A DNA stretch of 64,000 nucleotides from Escherichia phage vB_EcoM_CUA3: the sequence record PP410321; one strand, 5' to 3'. Shown here in pieces: positions 27,850 to 51,217 of this stretch. A model generated the notes under the pieces. The model did not search any database and was not told the DNA's origin. It worked only from the letters and a program-made list of their open reading frames with translations. Position 1 is the first letter of the stretch; each line of letters opens with the position of its first letter. Position numbers and translations under genes: made by a program.

Positions 27850-28785
27850 ATGGCAAGTGAATCATTTAACCCTAAGCAACTCAAGGACGCTATTCTGCGC
27901 CGCCTGGGTGCACCGATTACAAATATTGAAGTAACTACAGACCAAGTATACGATTGCATCCAGCGCGCTCTAGAGCTCTACGGTGAATACCATTATAACG
28001 GATATAACAAAGGCTACCAGGCTTTTTATATCGGCCATGACGATGAAGAAAAATTCCGTAATGGTGTATTTGACCTTAAAGGACGTAATATATTTGCAGT
28101 AACACAAATTTTGAGAACTAATGTTGGTTCGTTAACATCTATGGACGGGCAAGCAACCTATCCGTGGTTTACTGATTTTGTATTAGGTTTAGCTGGGATT
28201 AATGGCGGCCTTGGGTCTTCATGTAATAGTTTTGGGCCTAATGCCTTCGGTGCCGACCTTGGTTATTTTACCCAGCTAATGCAATACCGTTCTATGATGC
28301 AAGACCTTTTAGTTCCACTCCCGGATTATTGGTATAATGATGCCACAGAACAATTGAAGGTAATGGGTAACTTCGTTAAAGGCGATTTTATTGTAATTGA
28401 AGTTTATACTCGCTCTTTTAATGGGGTAGATTCTATGGTTGGAAATACCGTAGGCTATGGTTATGCTTCNNNNGGCNGTGGTGAAAATGAATGGAGTCCT
28501 GGTGCTATTTGGGATAACCCAGCTCGTCGTATTTCCGGTATGCGTGTAGGCGAGGACCTTGGCCTTCAAGACGGTGCATATAATAACCGTTGGGTTAAAG
28601 ATTATGCCACTGCATTGGTTAAAGAAGTCAATGGCAATATTCTAGCCAAACACCAAGGCATGCAACTTGCAGGTGGAACCACTGTAGATGGTATTCGATT
28701 GATTGAAGAAGCTCGTTTAGAAAAAGAACGTCTTCGTGAAGAATTAGATTTGCTCGACCCACCAACACCTATTTTAATTGGATAA
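27850..28785 (+). CDS. 13: gp13 neck protein
   Basis: 311 aa; strong match to T4 gp13 as recalled (…[37 protein letters not shown]…). Confidence 0.95.
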
Positions 28786-28787
28786 TT

Positions 28788-29561
28788 ATGGCTACTTTCG
28801 ATTCGAGTTTATTCGCTAAGCTAGAAGATAATACTGGCTATGCTAATACGAACGAAACTGAAATAATGAACCCATTCGTCAACTTTTATCGCCATGAGAA
28901 TACCCAAACATTGGCTGATGCTTTAGTTGCTGAGTCTATTCAAATGCGTGGTATCGAGCTTTATTATATACCACGTGAATATGTTAAACCAGACCAACTA
29001 TTTGGCGAAGACCTTCAGAACAAATTTACTAAAGCCTGGAAGTTTGCAGGTTATTTGGATTCCTTTGAAGGTTATTCCGGTGACAATACTTATTTCAGTA
29101 AGTTCGGTATGATGGTTAATGATGAAGTAACAATCACAATTAACCCTAACCTTTTTAAACATCAATGTAATGGTACTGAACCTGTTTCAGGTGACTTGAT
29201 TTATTTCCCTATGGACAACAGTCTATTTGAAATTAATTGGGTTCAACCTTACGACCCGTTCTATCAAGTTGGTACAAACGTCCAGCGTCGTATTACTGCT
29301 ACCAAGTTCATTTATAACGGTGAAGAACTTCGTCCTGAATTACAGAGAAATGAAGGCATTAATATTCCTGAATTCAGTGAGCTTGATTTAATGCCTGTTA
29401 AAAATATCGACGGGTTGGCTGATATCTCTGATATCCAATATGAAGAGGTTAATGAGATTAATGCTGAAGCAGAGGAATTCGTACATCCTTATGTGGTGAT
29501 TAATGGTAGAGGAGAAGATGCTCCTCCTACAGCATTTGATGATGCTTTTTTAGATGATTAA
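28788..29561 (+). CDS. 14: gp14 neck protein
   Basis: 257 aa (T4 gp14 256); synteny. Confidence 0.9.
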
Positions 29562-29568
29562 ATAATAC

Positions 29569-29590
29569 ATGGCGCATAGTGCGCCATTTT
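29569..29590 (+). terminator. stem-loop terminator after gene 14
   Basis: atggcgc-atagt-gcgccat hairpin followed by ttt. Confidence 0.5.
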
Positions 29591-29600
29591 AGGAGGTTTG

Positions 29601-30463
29601 ATGTTTGGACATTGGTATAATAGTTCGCTACGTCGCTATATTGTTTTGATGGGTGATTTATTTTCCCATGTTCAAGTAGCACGTCAAAGAGAAGATACAG
29701 GGCTTAAATTTATTAAGGTTCCTATTACGTATGCTTCTAAAGAAAGATTTATGGCTAATTTAGGTAAGTGGACAGCAGTACAGAATATCCCAAATCCTAA
29801 TATGTCCCCAAAAGAAAGGGCTGAACAAAAAGCTAAAGTGGAAACTGTTCTTCCACGTATGAACCTTCAAATGGTTGACATGCTTTATAACTCACAATAC
29901 AAAACGGCTCTTCAAAATAGAACACAAATTCAATTTGAGAATGGAGACCCTCGGAAAAGAGTCAGCCAATATTCTCCTACTCCAGTAAAAATGATTTTTG
30001 AACTGGGTATTTACACTAGAACTCAAGATGATATGTTCCAGATTGTGGAACAAATTATGCCGTATTTCCAACCTCACTTTAATACAACAATTACCGAACT
30101 CTATACAAACGAAATTAAATTTGACCGTGATATTCGTATTGTGTTCCAATCTATAGCAATGGACGAACAATTAGAAGGTGATACCACTTCACGTCGTCGC
30201 TTAGAATGGTCTATGATGTTTGAGGTTAACGGATGGTTATATCCTCCTGTTAAAGAAATGGAAGGCGAAATCAAAACCATTTATCTTGATTTCTTTGCCA
30301 ACTCTAAAGAACTCGCTCCTGAAGGTAATTTTGAATCGGTTGATAGCGAAGTAGTTCCTAGAGGTGTAGAAGAAAAAGAATGGGATGGTAAGTCCATTCA
30401 AACGTATTCACAAGATATTCCGGTGCCTGTTGAACCAGAACCTCCAGCACCAAGGAGAAACCC

Positions 30464-30467
<4 letters not shown>
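29601..30467 (+). CDS. 15: gp15 tail sheath stabiliser / tail terminator
   Basis: Match to T4 gp15 (MFG..YNSS.RRY…[17 protein letters not shown]…); track start 29598 is TTG, ATG at 29601 follows AGGAGG. Confidence 0.95.
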
Positions 30468-32777
<2,310 letters not shown>

Positions 32778-32806
32778 ACAATAAAGCATAACCAAGAGGA
32801 TTCAAA

Positions 32807-34789
32807 ATGTCTTTATTATCACCGGGCATTGAGCTCAAAGAAACGTCCGTACAGAGTACTGTCGTTCGTAACGCAACGGGTCGTGCAGCGCTGGTTGGTA
32901 AATTCCAGTGGGGCCCTGCTTTCCAGGTAACTCAAATTACTAACGAAGTTGAACTGGTGGATTTGTTTGGAGGTCCTAACAACGAAGTGGCAGATTATTT
33001 TATGTCTGGTATGAACTTCCTCCAATATGGTAACGACCTTCGTACTGTTCGTGTTGTTAACCGTGAATTCGCTAAAAACGCATCTCCTATTGCAGGCAAT
33101 ATCGAAACCACTATTACTACGGCTGGTTCTAACTATGCGGTAGGCGATAAAATCAATATTAAATATAACCAAACTGTTGTTGAATCTGAAGGCCGTGTGA
33201 CTTCTGTAGATACGGACGGTAAAATTCTTTCCGTGTTTATCCCAACAGCAAAAATTATTGCTTATGCACGTTCTCTAAACCAGTATCCTACCCTGGGTCC
33301 GGCTTGGACAGCTGAAGTTACTTCCGCATCTTCCGGTGTTTCTGGTACTATTACCGTAGGTAAAATTGTTACGGATTCAGGTATTCTTTTGACTGAAGCA
33401 GAGAATAGCGAAGAAGCTATTACTTCTCTTGAATTCCAAGCATCTCTTAAGAAATTTGCTATGCCAGGCGTAGTGGCTCTTTATCCTGGTGAAATTGGTT
33501 CTACTCTGGAAGTAGAAATCGTTTCCAAAGCCGCTTATGATGCTGGTTCTTCTAAAATGCTGGATATTTATCCTGGCGGTGGCACCCGTGCTTCTATTGC
33601 TAAGGCAGTATTTAATTACGGCCCGCAAACAGATGACCAATATGCAATTATTGTTCGTCGCGATGGCGCTATCGTAGAATCCGTCGTACTTTCTACCAAA
33701 GAAGGTGAAAAAGACGTTTACGGTAATAACATTTATCTTGACGACTATTTCGCTAAAGGTACTTCCAATTACATCTATGCTACCTCTTTGAACTGGCCTA
33801 AAGGCTTCAGCGGTATCATTAATCTGATGGGTGGTGTTTCTGCTAACGATAAAGTTACTGCAGGCGATTTGATGCAAGGTTGGGATTTGTTTGCCGATCG
33901 TGAAGCACTCCATATTAACCTTTTGATTGCTGGTGCTGTTGCCGGTGAAGGCGACGAAGTGGCTTCTACTGTTCAGAAACACGTTGTGAGTATTGCTGAT
34001 GAACGTCAGGATTGCTTAGCATTTATTTCTCCTCCTAAAGGACTGTTGGTTAACGTTCCATTGACTCGTGCAGTAGATAATCTTATCGACTGGCGTACCG
34101 GTGCAGGTACTTTCGATGCCAACAACATGAACATTAGCACCACTTATGCTGCTATTGATGGTAACTATAAATATCAGTATGACAAATATAATGACGTAAA
34201 CCGTTGGGTACCACTGGCTGCCGATATGGCTGGTTTGTGTGCACGTACTGATGATGTGTCTCAGCCTTGGATGTCTCCTGCTGGTTATAATCGTGGTCAG
34301 ATTCTTAACGTTCTGAAATTGGCAATTGAACCACGCCAAGCACAACGTGACCGCATGTACCAGGAAGCTATTAACCCGGTTGTTGGTTTTGCTGGTGGTG
34401 ATGGTTTCGTATTGTTTGGTGATAAGACTGCAACTAAAGTTCCATCTCCGATGGACCACATTAACGTTCGCCGTCTGTTCAACATGCTTAAGAAAAATAT
34501 CGGTGATGCCTCTAAATATAAACTGTTTGAATTGAACGATAACTTCACTCGTTCAAGCTTCCGTATGGAAGTTTCTCAGTACTTAGATGGTATTAAGGCA
34601 CTTGGTGGGATTTATGAAGGACGTGTGGTTTGTGATACTACGGTGAACACTCCTGCGGTTATCGACCGTAACGAGTTTATTGCTAATATCTATGTTAAAC
34701 CTTCTCGTTCTATTAACTACATCACGTTGAACTTCGTTGCAACGAGCACTGGTGCTGATTTTGATGAATTGATTGGACCTTTAGTATAA
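32807..34789 (+). CDS. 18: gp18 tail sheath protein
   Basis: 660 aa; strong match to T4 gp18 as recalled. Confidence 0.97.
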   Translation: MSLLSPGIELKETSVQSTVVRNATGRAALVGKFQWGPAFQVTQITNEVELVDLFGGPNNEVADYFMSGMNFLQYGNDLRTVRVVNREFAKNASPIAGNIETTITTAGSNYAVGDKINIKYNQTVVESEGRVTSVDTDGKILSVFIPTAKIIAYARSLNQYPTLGPAWTAEVTSASSGVSGTITVGKIVTDSGILLTEAENSEEAITSLEFQASLKKFAMPGVVALYPGEIGSTLEVEIVSKAAYDAGSSKMLDIYPGGGTRASIAKAVFNYGPQTDDQYAIIVRRDGAIVESVVLSTKEGEKDVYGNNIYLDDYFAKGTSNYIYATSLNWPKGFSGIINLMGGVSANDKVTAGDLMQGWDLFADREALHINLLIAGAVAGEGDEVASTVQKHVVSIADERQDCLAFISPPKGLLVNVPLTRAVDNLIDWRTGAGTFDANNMNISTTYAAIDGNYKYQYDKYNDVNRWVPLAADMAGLCARTDDVSQPWMSPAGYNRGQILNVLKLAIEPRQAQRDRMYQEAINPVVGFAGGDGFVLFGDKTATKVPSPMDHINVRRLFNMLKKNIGDASKYKLFELNDNFTRSSFRMEVSQYLDGIKALGGIYEGRVVCDTTVNTPAVIDRNEFIANIYVKPSRSINYITLNFVATSTGADFDELIGPLV

Positions 34790-34914
34790 TCTATTATCCC
34801 AGGCTGTAATATAAAGAACCTAAAACCATTATACCATGTGTTCGGTTACAGCGTATATCACGTAGAATTGCGCCTGGGATTGATTAACTATCGGGAATAT
34901 GATTTATCAACTGT

Positions 34915-34922
34915 TATAAATA
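34915..34922 (+). promoter_or_regulatory. late promoter TATAAATA for gene 19
   Basis: Exact TATAAATA 41 nt upstream of the gp19 ATG. Confidence 0.65.
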
Positions 34923-34962
34923 AATTAATCAGAACGTTCCTGGTGTGGCCAGGAACTGACTT

Positions 34963-35466
34963 ATGAGGCATCCCATGGAGTTGACAGATATCACTCGTGC
35001 GTTTGAGTCAGGTGACTTTGCACGCCCTAACCTTTTCGAAGTGGAAATTCCATTTCTCGGTAAAAACTTTAGCTTTAAATGTAAAGCAGCACCCATGCCG
35101 GCAGGCATTGTAGAAAAAGTACCGGTTGGCTACATGAACCGTAAAATTAACGTAGCCGGTGACCGTACATTTGATGATTGGACCATTACCATTTATAACG
35201 ATGATGCTCATGACACCCGTCAGGCAATTGTTGATTGGCAGAACCTCTGTCACGGTATGACCAATGAAATTACCGGTGCTGCACCTGCAGAATATAAGAA
35301 ACAAGCAGTAGTTCGCCAGTTCCATCGTGATGGCAAGACTGTGACTAAAGAAGTTACAATTTATGGCTTATGGCCTACTAACGTTGGTGAAGTCCAGATG
35401 GACTGGGATTCAAACAACGAGGTAGAAACTTTCGAATCTACGTTCGCTATCGATTGGTGGGAATGA
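34963..35466 (+). CDS. 19: gp19 tail tube protein
   Basis: 167 aa; strong match to T4 gp19 (…TRAFESGDFARPNLF…KINVAGDRTFDDWT…). Confidence 0.97.
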   Translation: MRHPMELTDITRAFESGDFARPNLFEVEIPFLGKNFSFKCKAAPMPAGIVEKVPVGYMNRKINVAGDRTFDDWTITIYNDDAHDTRQAIVDWQNLCHGMTNEITGAAPAEYKKQAVVRQFHRDGKTVTKEVTIYGLWPTNVGEVQMDWDSNNEVETFESTFAIDWWE

Positions 35467-35467
35467 G

Positions 35468-35475
35468 TATAAATA
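35468..35475 (+). promoter_or_regulatory. late promoter TATAAATA for gene 20
   Basis: Exact TATAAATA immediately after the gene 19 stop codon. Confidence 0.6.
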
Positions 35476-35485
35476 GAACTATAAA

Positions 35486-35499
35486 GGAGCTTCGGCTCC
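35486..35499 (+). other. stem-loop ggagc-ttcg-gctcc in the gene 20 leader
   Basis: Perfect 5-bp stem with tetraloop between the late promoter and the gp20 ATG; could be a partial terminator or leader structure. Confidence 0.4.
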
Positions 35500-35523
35500 T
35501 TATCCCATTCATCGGAGACTCTA

Positions 35524-37101
35524 ATGGCAAACTTTAATACAATATTAAGTTTTCTTAAGCCATGGGCTAATGAAGACGAAAAAGAATTTAAACAACAATT
35601 AAATAACAATTTAGAGTCTGTCACTGCACCTAAGCTTGATGATGGCGCTCGCGAAATTGAAACCCAAGAGCAAAATATTCCTTATAACGCTCTTATGCAA
35701 CAAATGTTTGGTAGTAATGAGCCTGAAGTAAAAAACACCAGGGAACTCATTGATACCTACCGTAATTTGATGAACAACTATGAAGTCGATAACGCAGTTC
35801 AAGAAATTGTGTCTGACGCTATTGTCTATGAGGATGATAAAGAAGTAGTTGCATTGAATTTAGACGGGACAGAATTCAGTCAATCAATTAAAGATAAAAT
35901 TTTGGCTGAATTTAGTGAAGTTTTAAACCTTTTAAATTTCCAACGTAAAGGCACTGACCATTTCCAACGTTGGTATGTAGACTCGAGAATATTCTTTCAT
36001 AAAATTATAAACCCTAAAAAAATGAAAGATGGCGTACAAGAGCTTCGACGCTTAGACCCGCGCCAAGTCCAATATATTCGTGAAATCGTTACACGTATGG
36101 AAGACGGCGTTAAAATTGTAGACGGGTATCGCGAGTTTTTCGTTTACGACACAGGCCATGAAAGTTATTGCGCTGATGGACGCATTTATTCAGCCGGGAC
36201 TAAAGTTAAAATTCCTCGTGCTGCGGTAGTTTATGCACATTCCGGATTATTAGATTGTTGTGGTAAAAACATCATTGGCTATTTGCAACGTGCTATTAAG
36301 CCTGCAAACCAGCTTAAATTGATGGAAGACGCAATGGTCATCTACCGTATTACACGTGCTCCCGACCGTCGTGTGTTTTATATCGATACAGGTAATATGC
36401 CTTCTCGTAAGGCGGCAGCACAAATGCAACATATCATGAACACGATGAAAAACCGTGTGGTGTATGATGCTTCGACCGGTAAAATTAAAAACCAGCAACA
36501 TAATATGTCAATGACTGAAGACTATTGGTTGCAACGTCGAGACGGTAAAGCAGTTACAGAAGTTGATACAATGCCAGGTGCTACTGGTATGAGTGATATG
36601 GATGACGTTCTTTATTTCCGCACAGCACTTTACCGTGCGCTGCGTATTCCAGAGTCGCGTATCCCTAGTGAATCTAATTCCGGTGTTATGTTTGATGCTG
36701 GTACGGCTATAACTCGTGATGAGTTGAAATTTGCTAAATGGATTCGTCAGCTCCAAAATAAATTCGAAGAAATTTTCTTAGACCCATTAAAAACAAACCT
36801 CATTCTTAAAAAGATTATTACAGAAGATGAGTGGGAAAGAGAAATAAATAATATTAAAGTTACGTTCAACCGTGATAGCTACTTCAGTGAAATGAAAGAT
36901 GCGGAAATCATGGAACGCAGAATCAATATGCTAACGATGGCTGAACCATTTATTGGTAAGTATATTTCACATCAAACGGCTATGAAAGATTTCCTTCAGA
37001 TGACTGACGAAGAAATTAATCAAGAAGCTAAGCAAATTGAAGAAGAGTCTAAAGAGGCTCGTTTCCAAAACCCAGATGAAGAAGAAGAAGAGGATTTCTA
37101 A
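35524..37101 (+). CDS. 20: gp20 portal vertex protein
   Basis: 525 aa (T4 gp20 524); synteny. Confidence 0.95.
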
Positions 37102-45580: not shown

Positions 45581-47613
45581 AACAATTCTCTTGTNNNNNN
45601 NNNNNNNNNNNNNNNNNNNNNNNNNNNNNNNNNNNNNNNNNNNNNNNNNNNNNNNNNNNNNNNNNNNNNNNNNNNNNNNNNNNNNNNNNNNNNNNNNNNN
45701 NNNNNNNNNNNNNNNNNNNNNNNNNNNNNNNNNNNNNNNNNNNNNNNNNNNNNNNNNNNNNNNNNNNNNNNNNNNNNNNNNNNNNNNNNNNNNNNNNNNN
45801 NNNNNNNNNNNNNNNNNNNNNNNNNNNNNNNNNNNNNNNNNNNNNNNNNNNNNNNNNNNNNNNNNNNNNNNNNNNNNNNNNNNNNNNNNNNNNNNNNNNN
45901 NNNNNNNNNNNNNNNNNNNNNNNNNNNNNNNNNNNNNNNNNNNNNNNNNNNNNNNNNNNNNNNNNNNNNNNNNNNNNNNNNNNNNNNNNNNNNNNNNNNN
46001 NNNNNNNNNNNNNNNNNNNNNNNNNNNNNNNNNNNNNNNNNNNNNNNNNNNNNNNNNNNNNNNNNNNNNNNNNNNNNNNNNNNNNNNNNNNNNNNNNNNN
46101 NNNNNNNNNNNNNNNNNNNNNNNNNNNNNNNNNNNNNNNNNNNNNNNNNNNNNNNNNNNNNNNNNNNNNNNNNNNNNNNNNNNNNNNNNNNNNNNNNNNN
46201 NNNNNNNNNNNNNNNNNNNNNNNNNNNNNNNNNNNNNNNNNNNNNNNNNNNNNNNNNNNNNNNNNNNNNNNNNNNNNNNNNNNNNNNNNNNNNNNNNNNN
46301 NNNNNNNNNNNNNNNNNNNNNNNNNNNNNNNNNNNNNNNNNNNNNNNNNNNNNNNNNNNNNNNNNNNNNNNNNNNNNNNNNNNNNNNNNNNNNNNNNNNN
46401 NNNNNNNNNNNNNNNNNNNNNNNNNNNNNNNNNNNNNNNNNNNNNNNNNNNNNNNNNNNNNNNNNNNNNNNNNNNNNNNNNNNNNNNNNNNNNNNNNNNN
46501 NNNNNNNNNNNNNNNNNNNNNNNNNNNNNNNNNNNNNNNNNNNNNNNNNNNNNNNNNNNNNNNNNNNNNNNNNNNNNNNNNNNNNNNNNNNNNNNNNNNN
46601 NNNNNNNNNNNNNNNNNNNNNNNNNNNNNNNNNNNNNNNNNNNNNNNNNNNNNNNNNNNNNNNNNNNNNNNNNNNNNNNNNNNNNNNNNNNNNNNNNNNN
46701 NNNNNNNNNNNNNNNNNNNNNNNNNNNNNNNNNNNNNNNNNNNNNNNNNNNNNNNNNNNNNNNNNNNNNNNNNNNNNNNNNNNNNNNNNNNNNNNNNNNN
46801 NNNNNNNNNNNNNNNNNNNNNNNNNNNNNNNNNNNNNNNNNNNNNNNNNNNNNNNNNNNNNNNNNNNNNNNNNNNNNNNNNNNNNNNNNNNNNNNNNNNN
46901 NNNNNNNNNNNNNNNNNNNNNNNNNNNNNNNNNNNNNNNNNNNNNNNNNNNNNNNNNNNNNNNNNNNNNNNNNNNNNNNNNNNNNNNNNNNNNNNNNNNN
47001 NNNNNNNNNNNNNNNNNNNNNNNNNNNNNNNNNNNNNNNNNNNNNNNNNNNNNNNNNNNNNNNNNNNNNNNNNNNNNNNNNNNNNNNNNNNNNNNNNNNN
47101 NNNNNNNNNNNNNNNNNNNNNNNNNNNNNNNNNNNNNNNNNNNNNNNNNNNNNNNNNNNNNNNNNNNNNNNNNNNNNNNNNNNNNNNNNNNNNNNNNNNN
47201 NNNNNNNNNNNNNNNNNNNNNNNNNNNNNNNNNNNNNNNNNNNNNNNNNNNNNNNNNNNNNNNNNNNNNNNNNNNNNNNNNNNNNNNNNNNNNNNNNNNN
47301 NNNNNNNNNNNNNNNNNNNNNNNNNNNNNNNNNNNNNNNNNNNNNNNNNNNNNNNNNNNNNNNNNNNNNNNNNNNNNNNNNNNNNNNNNNNNNNNNNNNN
47401 NNNNNNNNNNNNNNNNNNNNNNNNNNNNNNNNNNNNNNNNNNNNNNNNNNNNNNNNNNNNNNNNNNNNNNNNNNNNNNNNNNNNNNNNNNNNNNNNNNNN
47501 NNNNNNNNNNNNNNNNNNNNNNNNNNNNNNNNNNNNNNNNNNNNNNNNNNNNNNNNNNNNNNNNNNNNNNNNNNNNNNNNNNNNNNNNNNNNNNNNNNNN
47601 NNNNNNNNNNNNN

Positions 47614-48984
47614 ATGAATAATTCTACCGTTACGAGATTCTTGTACATCAACCTCTGGATAATCGGCGACCATTTTTTGAAGAGTATAGCGATGGAGATA
47701 ATATTCACTATCAGGGTCATCAGTTTTCCAGTCTTTACCTTCAAGTGTCATTTTCTGGATTTCATCCATAACCCACCAACCAGCCCAAATATAAGCTGAA
47801 TTACGAACAGGAAGTGGATGTACATAAGGTAGTTCACCGTCAGGAACAGGAGCCACTTTAGCAGTAATTGTTACATTACCTGTTTTTTTGACCGTCACTG
47901 GGTTATAATCGGTTGCGGAAACCGCAACAGAAACTTCAATAACCTGCGAACCTTCAGCACTTGTATCGATTGCCAAAGTATCCGTGGTGCCTGCAACAGG
48001 TGAACCATCTTTCTTCCAAGAATATGCAAAAGTAGCACCAGCAGGGGCACCGGCTACGGTAGCTTTAAAAGAAGCTGGAATTCCTTCAGAGACATTAATA
48101 GACGGTGGCGTTAAGTTAACAGAAACACCCGTCATAGTCTTTTTAGTAATTGTTACACTTCCTGTTTTGGCAACGGTTAAATCTTTATAATCCGCACCTG
48201 TTAGGACTACCGAAACTTCAATAGAGTAAGAACCTATTGTAGATGTATCGACAGCAAGAATATTGCTGCTTTCGCCTGGAATAATAGAACCATTTTTCTT
48301 CCAAGAATAAGTTGCATTTACACCGGAAGGAGCGCCGATTACATCCGCTTTAAACTGTGCAGATGAGTCTTTCTCTGTACTAATTGAGGCCGGCGTTAAA
48401 GTAACAGAAACACCTGACAAAGTTTTCTTAACAAAAGTTACAGCAGCACCTTTAGTAGCGGTAGCCGAATTATATTCAGGGGCAGTAACGGTAACTTCAC
48501 AGTTCAAAGTGTAATTTGCTTCTGCTGCTTCAGTTATGGTAATAGTTTTACCTGTTTGACCTGATATTACGCTAGTGTTACGTTTCCAAACATAAGCGAT
48601 TGTTGCACCGGAAGGAGCACCTGTTACGTTAGCAGTAACAACCTGAGATTGGCCAATTTCTTTAGAAACGGAAGTAGGGTCTAAGGCCAAAGAAATGGTC
48701 NNNATGGTCTTATTAACTACGGTGACTTCAAAAGTATCTTCAGCTACCTCAGGTTCGCCTTCAGCTGGAGTAGAAGTTGCTACTACCTTTAAAACTTTCT
48801 TACCAGCCGGAGCCGCACCGGTATATTTCAAAACATTGGTTGCCTCTGGATTAGAAGCACCGCCAACGGTCCATACATATGTAATGGTTCCTTCTACAGC
48901 TGCACCTGTTGCGGTAGCAGTGTAGTTGGCACTTTCGCCTATTTTTATAGACGCAGCACCGGCTATACTTACAGTAAAAGCCAT
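47614..48984 (-). CDS. hoc: Hoc outer capsid decoration protein with four Ig-like repeats (C-terminal few residues masked)
   Basis: Four consecutive ~90-aa repeats each ending ...T(V/I)(T/V)xKKT, then …AKVAPVPDGELPYVHPLP…YLHRYTLQKM… matching the T4 Hoc capsid-binding domain as recalled. Confidence 0.85.
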
Positions 48985-48993
48985 AGTTTACCC

Positions 48994-49665
48994 TTATTTT
49001 AAAGTTACGAAAGATGAATTACGTGTTTCACGTACTAATACTGAACCATTACGATTAATGTAATAAATCAGACTGAATAGTGTTTGGTGGGCAGATGGGT
49101 GTTGGAAATCTTTAGGACGTTCTTTCCAATCAGGGGTTTCGGCAATCCATTGATAAATCCACCAAGGCACAGTACAATACCCTGGATTTTTACCAATGAG
49201 TAAAAGATTAGGGCTAAAATTTTCAGGCAAAGAGAATACAGGTTTTTCAGATTCAATAACATTGGTTACAGCCTCTTCGAATTTCTCTTCGATAAAAGGA
49301 GTATCTTCTTCAATAANNNNNNNNNNNNNNNNNNNNNNNNNNNNNNNAACTTCAACCACGGCCTCAGGGGCATCAAATAATAGGGTGGCCTCTTCTTTAG
49401 CGGGTTCAGCACCATCAATAAATTCGTTAGCACCGGTAAGTTCATCAGCGGCGTCAATCAAATCAGAAATAGACAAACCTTCGGTTTCCGGAAGTGGTTC
49501 ATCTGCCAAGGCTTTAAGGCCTTCAGAGATATCGATAATCAAATTATCAAACGAACGGGTTTTCTTAAGTTTTAAACCGAACTGTTCGCCGTATTCGATT
49601 AACTTAGCTTTAGCTTCTTTTTTATCTTCGAGTGCACGAAGCTCTTCAATATATTGAGTATCCAT
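48994..49665 (-). CDS. inh: Inh, inhibitor of the prohead protease
   Basis: 223 aa in the inh position between hoc and uvsW (T4 Inh about 226 aa); short N run inside. Confidence 0.7.
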   Translation of the reverse strand: MDTQYIEELRALEDKKEAKAKLIEYGEQFGLKLKKTRSFDNLIIDISEGLKALADEPLPETEGLSISDLIDAADELTGANEFIDGAEPAKEEATLLFDAPEAVVEVXXXXXXXXXXXIEEDTPFIEEKFEEAVTNVIESEKPVFSLPENFSPNLLLIGKNPGYCTVPWWIYQWIAETPDWKERPKDFQHPSAHQTLFSLIYYINRNGSVLVRETRNSSFVTLK

Positions 49666-49698: not shown

Positions 49699-49706
49699 TA
49701 TTTATA
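49699..49706 (-). promoter_or_regulatory. late promoter TATAAATA (minus strand) for inh
   Basis: Plus tatttata; divergent from the uvsW promoter. Confidence 0.6.
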
Positions 49707-49720
49707 ACTGAGAATTAGAC

Positions 49721-51217
49721 ATGCAAATTCAAGTACATTTTGATAATTTTAGTCATGTTCGTGTTGAGTGTGATGAATCCACCTTCTACGAACTCAGAGA
49801 CTATTTCAGCTTTGAAGCTGATGGATATAAATTTAACCCTAAATACCGATATGGACAATGGGATGGGAGAATTCGTCTTCTAGATTATAACCGTAAACTT
49901 CCATATGGTTTAGTCCCACAAATTAAAAAATTCGCTGACCAGTTTGAATACTCTCTTTGGATAGACCCACGAATTCTTGAACAGGAAGATATTTCACGTG
50001 AAGATTTTGACTCATGGGTGGCTTCACAAGAGATTTATTCAGGTTCTACCAAGATTGAGCCACATTGGTATCAGAATGAAGCCGTATACAACGGCCTGAC
50101 AAAACGACGCGCAATTCTGAATTTACCTACATCTGCAGGTAAATCATTGATTCAGGCGCTCCTGAGTCGATATTACGTTGAGAACTACGAAGGTAAAATT
50201 CTTATCTTAGTTCCTACTACTGCACTCGTAGACCAGATGATTAACGACTTCGTTGATTATCGTTTGTTCCCTAAAGCTGCTATGCTTGGTATTCGTTCAG
50301 GTACTGCTCGTGATTCCGATGCAATGATTTATGTTTCAACTTATCAAACGGCTATTAAACAACCTAAAGAGTGGTTTGCCCAGTTTGGTATGTTTATGAA
50401 CGACGAATGCCATTTAGCAACAGGTAAATCAATTTCTACCATCATCGAAGGCCTTACCAATTGTATGTTTAAATTTGGTTTGTCAGGTTCTTTAAAAGAC
50501 GGTAAAGCCAATTTAATGCAATACATGGGTTTATTTGGCGATGTGTTTAAACCTGTTTCCACCTCTCAATTGATGGAAGAAGGACAGGTCACTGATTTAA
50601 AAATAAACAGTATTTTCCTTCGTTATCCAGACGAATTCACTGTTAAGATGAAAGGTAAAGATTACCAATCAGAAATTAAAGTCATTACTAAGGCTACTCG
50701 TCGTAATAAATGGGTTGCTAATTTAGCTGTTAAACTCGCTAAGAAAGAAGAGAACGTATTCTTGATGTTTAAAAACATCGAGCACGGTAAAACTCTTTTT
50801 GAAATGGTTAAAGAGCAACATAAAGAGGTTTATTACGTATCAGGTGAAGTTAATACAGAAACTCGTAATGCTCTTAAAGTAATGGCGGAAAATGGTAAGG
50901 GTATTATTGTTGTGGCAAGTTATGGTGTATTTTCTACAGGTATTTCCGTTAAGAATCTCCATCATGTAATATTTGCACACCCAGTAAAATCTAAAATCAT
51001 TGTACTCCAGACAATAGGTCGTGTGCTCCGTAAACATGCATCTAAAACAACTGCACAAGTTTGGGACATTATAGACGACATGGGCGTTAAGCCTAAATCA
51101 GCAAATGCTAAAAAGAAATATGTTCATTTGAATTATGCATTAAAACATGCCTTAGAACGTATTCAACGTTATGCTGACGAGAAATTTAATTACGTAATGA
51201 AACAGGTGGATTTATGA
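49721..51217 (+). CDS. uvsW: UvsW DNA/RNA helicase
   Basis: 498 aa; N-terminus matches T4 UvsW as recalled; helicase motifs (LNLPTSAGKS, DECH). Confidence 0.95.
   Translation: MQIQVHFDNFSHVRVECDESTFYELRDYFSFEADGYKFNPKYRYGQWDGRIRLLDYNRKLPYGLVPQIKKFADQFEYSLWIDPRILEQEDISREDFDSWVASQEIYSGSTKIEPHWYQNEAVYNGLTKRRAILNLPTSAGKSLIQALLSRYYVENYEGKILILVPTTALVDQMINDFVDYRLFPKAAMLGIRSGTARDSDAMIYVSTYQTAIKQPKEWFAQFGMFMNDECHLATGKSISTIIEGLTNCMFKFGLSGSLKDGKANLMQYMGLFGDVFKPVSTSQLMEEGQVTDLKINSIFLRYPDEFTVKMKGKDYQSEIKVITKATRRNKWVANLAVKLAKKEENVFLMFKNIEHGKTLFEMVKEQHKEVYYVSGEVNTETRNALKVMAENGKGIIVVASYGVFSTGISVKNLHHVIFAHPVKSKIIVLQTIGRVLRKHASKTTAQVWDIIDDMGVKPKSANAKKKYVHLNYALKHALERIQRYADEKFNYVMKQVDL

Follow-up and report, generated by a model that had tools for sequence, protein, structure and literature searches.

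The hoc locus and its context

We have analysed a stretch of 64,000 nucleotides from Escherichia phage vB_EcoM_CUA3 (hereafter the window), in which a long open reading frame lies on the minus strand at 47614..48984. The visible part of this frame comprises 457 codons and starts with an ATG at 48984. Over its full length it shows ~90% nucleotide identity to the annotated hoc genes of CLB_P2, JS10, dhaeg, dhabil, and Esco_phi_B-01, and the T4 Hoc chains in the PDB match its translation with E=7e-112 (phmmer). In addition, the gene lies directly downstream of inh, which encodes the prohead protease inhibitor (48994..49665, minus strand) and is separated from it by a gap of 9 nt, while uvsW (49721-51217, plus strand) is divergent from inh. 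The inh gene is colinear with that of JS10, the order in T4 is alike, and the uvsW, inh, and hoc synteny has the layout of both phages, with the downstream flank of hoc being masked in the window. Identity, T4 match, and synteny together bear out the original prediction that a homologue of the highly immunogenic outer capsid protein (Hoc) is encoded here, and its coordinates, 47614-48984, correctly delimit what is visible of the gene.

The end coordinate 47614 is a masking boundary and not the end of the gene; a run of 2,019 N bases (45595-47613) begins there. In the alignment, the Hoc proteins of JS10, IME341, UP19, and T4 extend 12–15 residues past the visible end of the window protein, and the C-terminal end of JS10 Hoc reads …RSALDTGIIYFY*. 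That is, judged by these relatives, the 3′ end of the window hoc (~12–15 codons plus the stop) sits inside the masked run. Three further masked bases (48701-48703) leave residues 94-95 of the protein as 'XX'. Across the window there are about 100 masked runs, of which the largest measure 2,019, 825, 733, 696, 653, and 641 nt. We have considered the GC dips of the window (e.g., at 22-28 kb and 44-48 kb) as true low-GC islands and rejected them, as they are masking artefacts.

Upstream of inh-hoc, a motif search has found the T4 late-promoter-like sequence TATAAATA at 49699..49706 on the minus strand. Its role as a late promoter would follow from what is known of late promoters in T4. Actually, the 55-nt gap between inh and uvsW holds two such motifs in opposite orientations, one reading toward inh-hoc (49706-49699, minus strand) and the other toward uvsW (from 49685, plus strand). 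In T4 this gap is occupied by the homing endonuclease gene segE, which is absent from both the window and JS10. UP19 has a homing endonuclease gene at another place, between uvsW and uvsW.1 (L003:76-771), and neither JS10 nor the colinear region of the window contains it.

The 8-kb block of tail and packaging genes in the window (28500-36500) shows 97.5% identity to both dhabil and dhaeg, and 96% to JS98. Because hoc (~90%) and this structural block (97.5% and 96%) both match Dhakavirus phages, the window is, on these identities, a Dhakavirus-type (JS10/dhabil-like) coliphage of the T4 family, and its gene is the hoc orthologue. The visible protein is acidic, with a pI of 5.08 versus 4.74 for T4 Hoc.

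Domain organization of the window Hoc

The N-terminal part of the protein is a linear string of Ig-like domains, all encoded on the minus strand. Module 1 (aa 1-93; 48706..48984) ends with TVVNKT and is the orthologue of T4 Hoc domain 1, to which it is 45% identical; its identity to module 1 of JS10 and UP19 is 92–94%. It is all-beta in the AlphaFold2 model, and the first modules of all Hocs group together with 83% bootstrap support. Module 2 (aa 94-188, of which 94-95 are masked; 48421..48705) ends with TFVKKT and takes the position of T4 domain 2, with 85–91% identity to module 2 of JS10 and UP19 and 31% to T4 domain 2; it gives a full-length match to the module profile and is modelled with a pLDDT of ~88–96. 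Module 3 (aa 189-283; 48136..48420), which ends with TITKKT and has a Pfam Ig_2 match at aa 218-259, is not found in T4, UP19, or VR20. Module 4 (aa 284-377; 47854..48135) ends with TITAKV and is the orthologue of T4 Hoc domain 3 (61% identity; 85% to UP19 module 3), with Pfam I-set and Ig_3 matches at aa 289-350. The four module ends agree roughly with the T-V-x-x-K-K-T-like linker that had been described in the original prediction.

Several lines of evidence converge on this division. The window Hoc has four full-length matches to the module profile and T4 has three, counts that are circular since the profile was built from these same seven modules. For ~120 database homologues together with AR1, WSPA, and IME341 the counts are independent of the profile construction, and here the profile finds 3, 4, or 5 modules strictly by length class (~375, 470, and 565 aa). 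At the DNA level, a 52-nt segment (repeat family D2 of a seed-and-extend repeat search) occurs four times in the gene with a spacing of exactly 285 nt, while TRF finds no tandem array in hoc because the module copies are too diverged.

The predicted structure points in the same direction. In the AlphaFold2 model, which was derived from a 33-sequence alignment and has a mean pLDDT of 86, residues 1-377 fold into four distinct modules, all of them all-beta with about seven strands, and the block pLDDT values lie at ~83–97. The Pfam I-set, Ig_2, and Ig_3 matches on modules 3 and 4 exceed their cut-offs. When the model is compared with the PDB by Foldseek, the best matches are strings of Ig domains, including the N-terminal four Ig domains of Dscam1 (E ~3e-13) and cadherin ectodomains; the crystal structure of RB49 Hoc (3shs) also matches with E=2.9e-11, and among viral proteins the best matches are Hocs of varied lengths. 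Of these matches we rely on the E-values and on what kind of protein is hit, since the global TM-scores are low (0.2–0.5) and the orientation from bead to bead differs.

The remaining visible part, aa 378-457 (47614..47853, minus strand), is the capsid-binding domain shortened by masking. It aligns near-identically to T4 Hoc 284-363 and belongs to a C-terminal domain homologous to T4 Hoc ~281-376, with the last ~12–15 residues masked in the window. The Trp interface is in place: W400, W403, and W404 of the window Hoc correspond to W306, W309, and W310 of T4 and are invariant in 33 homologues. In T4 Hoc, the capsid-binding domain and its Trp cluster bind gp23* hexamers (PMC10385173). AlphaFold2 models this domain as helix-containing and with low confidence (pLDDT ~47–67), because it is truncated by the masking.

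Overall, we put the probability at roughly 0.93 that the window Hoc consists of four ~94-aa Ig-like modules followed by a T4-type capsid-binding domain. The claim of four successive Ig-like modules before the capsid-binding domain has therefore held up in the module profile, the 285-nt periodicity, the AlphaFold2 model, and the Pfam matches.

Comparison with T4 Hoc and the relationships of module 3

T4 Hoc (NP_049793; PDB 5vf3, 8t1x, and others) has 376 aa, with three Ig-like domains and, C-terminal to them, the capsid-binding domain (PMC10385173), i.e., four domains in all, and our profile matches it three times. The count of three Ig modules that the original prediction gave for T4 is thus correct; the domain analysis keeps four Ig folds in the window Hoc, and T4 does not have four. 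The two proteins are not colinear in phmmer, where query residues 1-178 align to T4 1-179 and query residues 209-457 align to T4 115-363. This split alignment implies that roughly 94 residues of the window Hoc are without a counterpart in T4. The multiple alignment shows a single clean gap, equivalent to module 3 of the window, that is shared by T4, UP19 (Dhakavirus, 375 aa), and VR20 (Gaprivervirus, 377 aa). The repeat-boundary comparison that had been proposed for finding the duplicated module gives the same answer, in that the module lacking in T4 is module 3.

Module 3 is 53% identical to module 4, 52% to T4 domain 3, 34% to module 2, and 27% to module 1. We have placed it in a bootstrapped neighbour-joining tree of 63 modules from 17 Hocs. 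Module 3 of the Dhakaviruses forms its own clade (100% bootstrap) within the family of T4 domain 3 (98%), while Dhakavirus module 4 and the third modules of the three-module Hocs make up one clade (100%). Inside the domain-3 family, module 3 is sister to all others in 41% of the replicates and joins the m3 type of Klebsiella phages in 14%. Module 4 and T4 domain 3 share 61% identity and are closer to each other than either is to module 3, which argues that the module 3 paralogue is old. On this sequence evidence, module 3 is a paralogue that diverged from T4 domain 3 long ago, and not the product of a recent duplication. Its presence in the window may reflect retention rather than gain; that is, the paralogue may pre-date the split between Dhakavirus and Tequatrovirus, which would imply its loss in T4.

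Distribution of the four-module architecture

We have collected the 120 best homologues of the window Hoc from a collection of 5.8 billion proteins. In this set, 467–472 aa is the prevailing length (87/120), followed by 373–377 aa (29/120) and 563–565 aa (4/120). Members of the four-module class come from dhabil, JS10, Salmonella SG1, and dozens of Klebsiella phages, and some are Shigella-associated sequences; four modules are also present in the Hocs of Serratia WSPA (452 aa) and Klebsiella RCIP0032 (468 aa). The four longest proteins (P0013, P0014, P0016, and P0017), from metagenome or assembly contigs, are five-module Hocs of 563–565 aa with 63–65% identity to the window Hoc, and they appear to combine an extra domain-2-type module with an extra domain-3-type module.

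When module 3 alone is searched by tblastn, 15 phage records (~11 distinct phages) match at 88–94%, with JS10, dhabil, dhaeg, CLB_P2, and IME341 among them, and the next best match drops to 64%. This gap indicates that module 3 is a discrete type common to the JS10-like phages. With the whole protein as the query, 60 evenly spaced tblastn records were inspected, and in at least 9 of them the full-length Hoc match is a single piece. For this tally we have taken single-piece matches of ~1,375 nt only, since the "covered" percentage is unreliable for a repeat protein; in IME281, for example, two overlapping pieces span 99% of the query from a locus of 804 nt.

The capsid-binding domain is found with a much wider range of lengths in front of it. 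In an exhaustive search of 1.84 billion representatives, 0 to ~12 module-lengths precede the domain in the 62 tabulated hits (E≤1e-10), and weaker matches of the same search reach ~14–15 module-lengths, with two and three modules being the commonest. Fokine and colleagues reported in 2023 that most of 650 Hoc homologues are strings of Ig-like domains, ranging from 1 to 10 Ig and including Hocs with 1, 2, and 10 (PMC10385173). A 468-aa Hoc of phage PMBT63 has been explicitly described as having four Ig-like domains, one more than T4 (PMC13435897). The text of that paper places the capsid-binding domain at the N-terminus, while the sequence itself (P0047) has it at the C-terminus, residues 378-457, as in T4; judged by this sequence, the "N-terminal" is a wording slip and not a different architecture.

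The four-Ig layout is hence already known, being the norm for JS10-type Dhakaviruses, common elsewhere, and described in print. The discovery value of the present case is small, since the architecture has been deposited for JS10, dhabil, and others, has been printed for a homologue that is 68% identical, and falls inside the published range of 1–10 Ig domains.

Direct repeats and the origin of module 3

Module 3 is bounded by two direct repeats on the minus strand. Copy A, GGTGTTTCTGTTACTTTAACGCC, lies at the boundary between modules 2 and 3 (48392..48414, within repeat family D4) and encodes GVSVTLTP; copy B, GGTGTTTCTGTTAACTTAACGCC, lies at the boundary between modules 3 and 4 (48107..48129, found by the repeat search) and encodes GVSVNLTP. 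The two ~23-nt copies match at 21/23 bases and are exactly 285 nt apart. UP19, which lacks module 3, has a single junction that is a hybrid of A and B, with module-2-type sequence before the repeat and module-4-type sequence after it. A hybrid of this kind would be expected from recombination or slippage between the repeats, and it suggests that the absence of module 3 from UP19 is due to a precise recombinational loss or gain between the ~23-nt repeats. In general, the module number in the hoc family changes by whole 285-nt units, and the most likely route would be recombination between the near-identical sequences that encode the module starts (GVSVxLTP).

Which event explains the fourth module of the window Hoc has to be weighed against three readings. 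One would take it for a tandem duplication that arose recently in this phage alone, or for a repeat expansion created in the assembly. The modules do stand in tandem with a period of exactly 285 nt, but at the amino acid level module 4, the nearest neighbour of module 3, is only 53% identical to it, even the most similar DNA stretches of the two reach just 70–76% identity, and the repeat array that such an event would leave is not seen by TRF. Moreover, the orthologues of module 3 at 88–94% come from 15 independent phage records, and a diverged copy cannot be made by an assembler. We have rejected this candidate, whose probability is close to nil. Another reading is that module 3 was not duplicated within a Dhakavirus gene, but was acquired laterally by recombination with the hoc of another phage group, e.g., relatives that infect Klebsiella. 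Consistent with this, module 3 is slightly nearer to the m3 type (63%) and the m4 type (60%) of Klebsiella phages than to its own module 4 (53–56%), with 60–64% in tblastn, and the ~90% nucleotide identity of hoc versus 97.5% in neighbouring structural genes fits a frequent exchange of alleles. However, module 3 groups with the m3 type of Klebsiella phages at only 14% bootstrap, and no donor above 64% identity is present in the phage collection, so that we regard a lateral origin as unlikely.

The reading we consider a serious possibility, at somewhat under an even chance, takes four modules as the older state. According to it, the three-module forms (certainly the UP19-type Dhakaviruses, and possibly T4) would be deletions via the linker repeat, while the window would have retained the module. 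Modules 1, 2, and 3 of UP19 are 94%, 91%, and 85% identical to modules 1, 2, and 4 of the window, exactly the 285-nt module 3 is missing, and the junction is the hybrid of both flanking repeats described above. In addition, module 3 is equally far from module 4 (53–56%) and from T4 domain 3 (52%), while the latter two share 61%, distances which suggest that the paralogue split off before Dhakavirus and Tequatrovirus diverged. Against this, the position of module 3 outside all the other domain-3-type modules has 41% bootstrap only, the rates of the modules may differ, and what looks like a deletion could also stem from phages swapping entire hoc alleles.

A more far-reaching proposal, which we hold to be improbable, is that the module number of Hoc works as a fast and reversible length switch through the ~23-nt module-start sequences, and that module 3 of the Dhakaviruses adds ligand specificity or reach under diversifying selection in the gut. 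If it were true, three-module fibres (as in UP19) and four-module fibres (as in this phage and JS10) would arise within one genus.

Divergence at the locus and a probable second Hoc paralogue

Compared with its nearest relatives, hoc (47614-48984) shows only ~90% nucleotide identity, versus 97.5% to dhabil and dhaeg for the tail-sheath, terminase, and portal genes at 28500-36500. It is a hotspot of local divergence and belongs to the faster-diverging genes of the phage, which fits diversifying selection or allele exchange.

The masked run next to hoc (45595-47613) is exactly colinear in length with a stretch of JS10 (L001:4455-6334). In JS10 this stretch contains two genes, both on the strand opposite to hoc. 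One of them encodes a second Hoc paralogue of 286 aa, which is 28% identical to residues 287-457 of the window Hoc and has a capsid-binding domain of its own (WIGWWVLDEI…QESRNGY). The other encodes a 335-aa "tail fiber protein" with collagen-like G-X-Y repeats. Both genes are absent from UP19, IME341, VR20, and T4. By analogy with JS10, the phage probably has a second, different Hoc-type decoration, encoded in the region masked in the window, and the two would compete for the hexamer centres.

Proposed working of the four-module fibre

From what is known of T4, the window Hoc would be a monomeric fibre anchored by its C-terminal alpha/beta domain, which would sit at the centre of each hexamer of the major capsid protein. 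T4 Hoc is present as one copy per gp23* hexamer centre and is dispensable for growth (PMC10385173). Its string of four Ig-like modules, against three in T4, would project outward as a flexible, acidic fibre of ~225 Å, a length obtained by scaling from the 180 Å of the four-domain T4 fibre (PMC10385173).

In the literature, Hoc proteins are proposed to adhere to mucin glycans or bacterial surfaces via their Ig-like domains (PMC10385173, PMC11853027, PMC13435897), and the fibre of this phage may likewise provide a weak and reversible adhesion to them. It had also been proposed that the extra Ig domain lengthens the fibre and possibly alters adhesion; this idea is plausible and fits the literature. 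Phage PMBT63 is retained on mucin-coated plates (PMC13435897), and the Hoc of PNJ-9, with two Ig domains, still binds MUC2 (PMC11853027). Mucin binding has been published for Hocs with 2, with 3, and with 4 Ig modules, so that the module number alone may not alter the adhesion qualitatively.

The value of the locus is comparative. Three- and four-module alleles coexist in Dhakavirus and differ by one repeat-flanked 285-nt unit, and four-module Hocs have arisen at least twice, from copies of different domains. The hoc locus is a natural experiment on how the length of the fibre and the identity of its modules relate to mucus adherence, which bears on the persistence of phages in therapy.

Comparison with known Hoc proteins

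The closest known systems are the Hocs of JS10 (YP_002922527, 469 aa), dhabil and dhaeg (470 aa), CLB_P2, and IME341 (472 aa), which occupy the same locus and have four modules in the same order with the same capsid-binding domain. Full-length alignments with JS10 and IME341 are colinear and confirm that the window Hoc has this module order (m1-m2-m3-m4, then the C-terminal domain) and the specific m3 type. The window Hoc is 90–92% identical in amino acids to those of JS10 and dhabil over all 457 visible residues. It differs from the JS10-type genes by point substitutions only, at ~10% of nucleotides versus ~2.5% in nearby structural genes, while in IME341 module 1 is a different allele. Within the same genus, UP19 Hoc (375 aa) has three modules, which match modules 1, 2, and 4 of the window at 85–94%.

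Four-module Hocs are also found outside the genus. The Hoc-like protein of Klebsiella phage PMBT63 (468 aa) is 68% identical over 100% of the window Hoc and likewise has four Ig-like domains plus the capsid-binding domain. In this protein, as in dozens of similar Hocs from Klebsiella, Salmonella, and Shigella phages, both capsid-proximal modules are of the T4 domain-3 type, like in the window. However, modules 3 and 4 of PMBT63 are 76% identical to each other, while those of the window are 53% identical, and the third module of PMBT63 shares 60–64% identity with module 3 of the window, with 14% bootstrap for their grouping. The Hoc of the Tequatrovirus AR1 (474 aa), together with those of similar E. 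coli and Shigella phages, also has four Ig-like modules and the capsid-binding domain at the same locus, but unlike in the window its extra module is of the T4 domain-2 type (100% bootstrap; module 3 of AR1 is 86% identical to T4 module 2). Judged by this tree, the AR1-type Hoc is an independent route to four modules. A shorter form is known from phage PNJ-9, whose Hoc has two modules and lacks domain 3 (PMC11853027).

Compared with T4 itself, the window Hoc has a nearly identical capsid-binding domain, modules 1 and 4 that are orthologous to T4 domains 1 and 3 (45% and 61%), the same inh-hoc order, and the same acidic character. On the other hand, its module 2 is just 31% identical to T4 domain 2, and its module 3 has no equivalent in T4.
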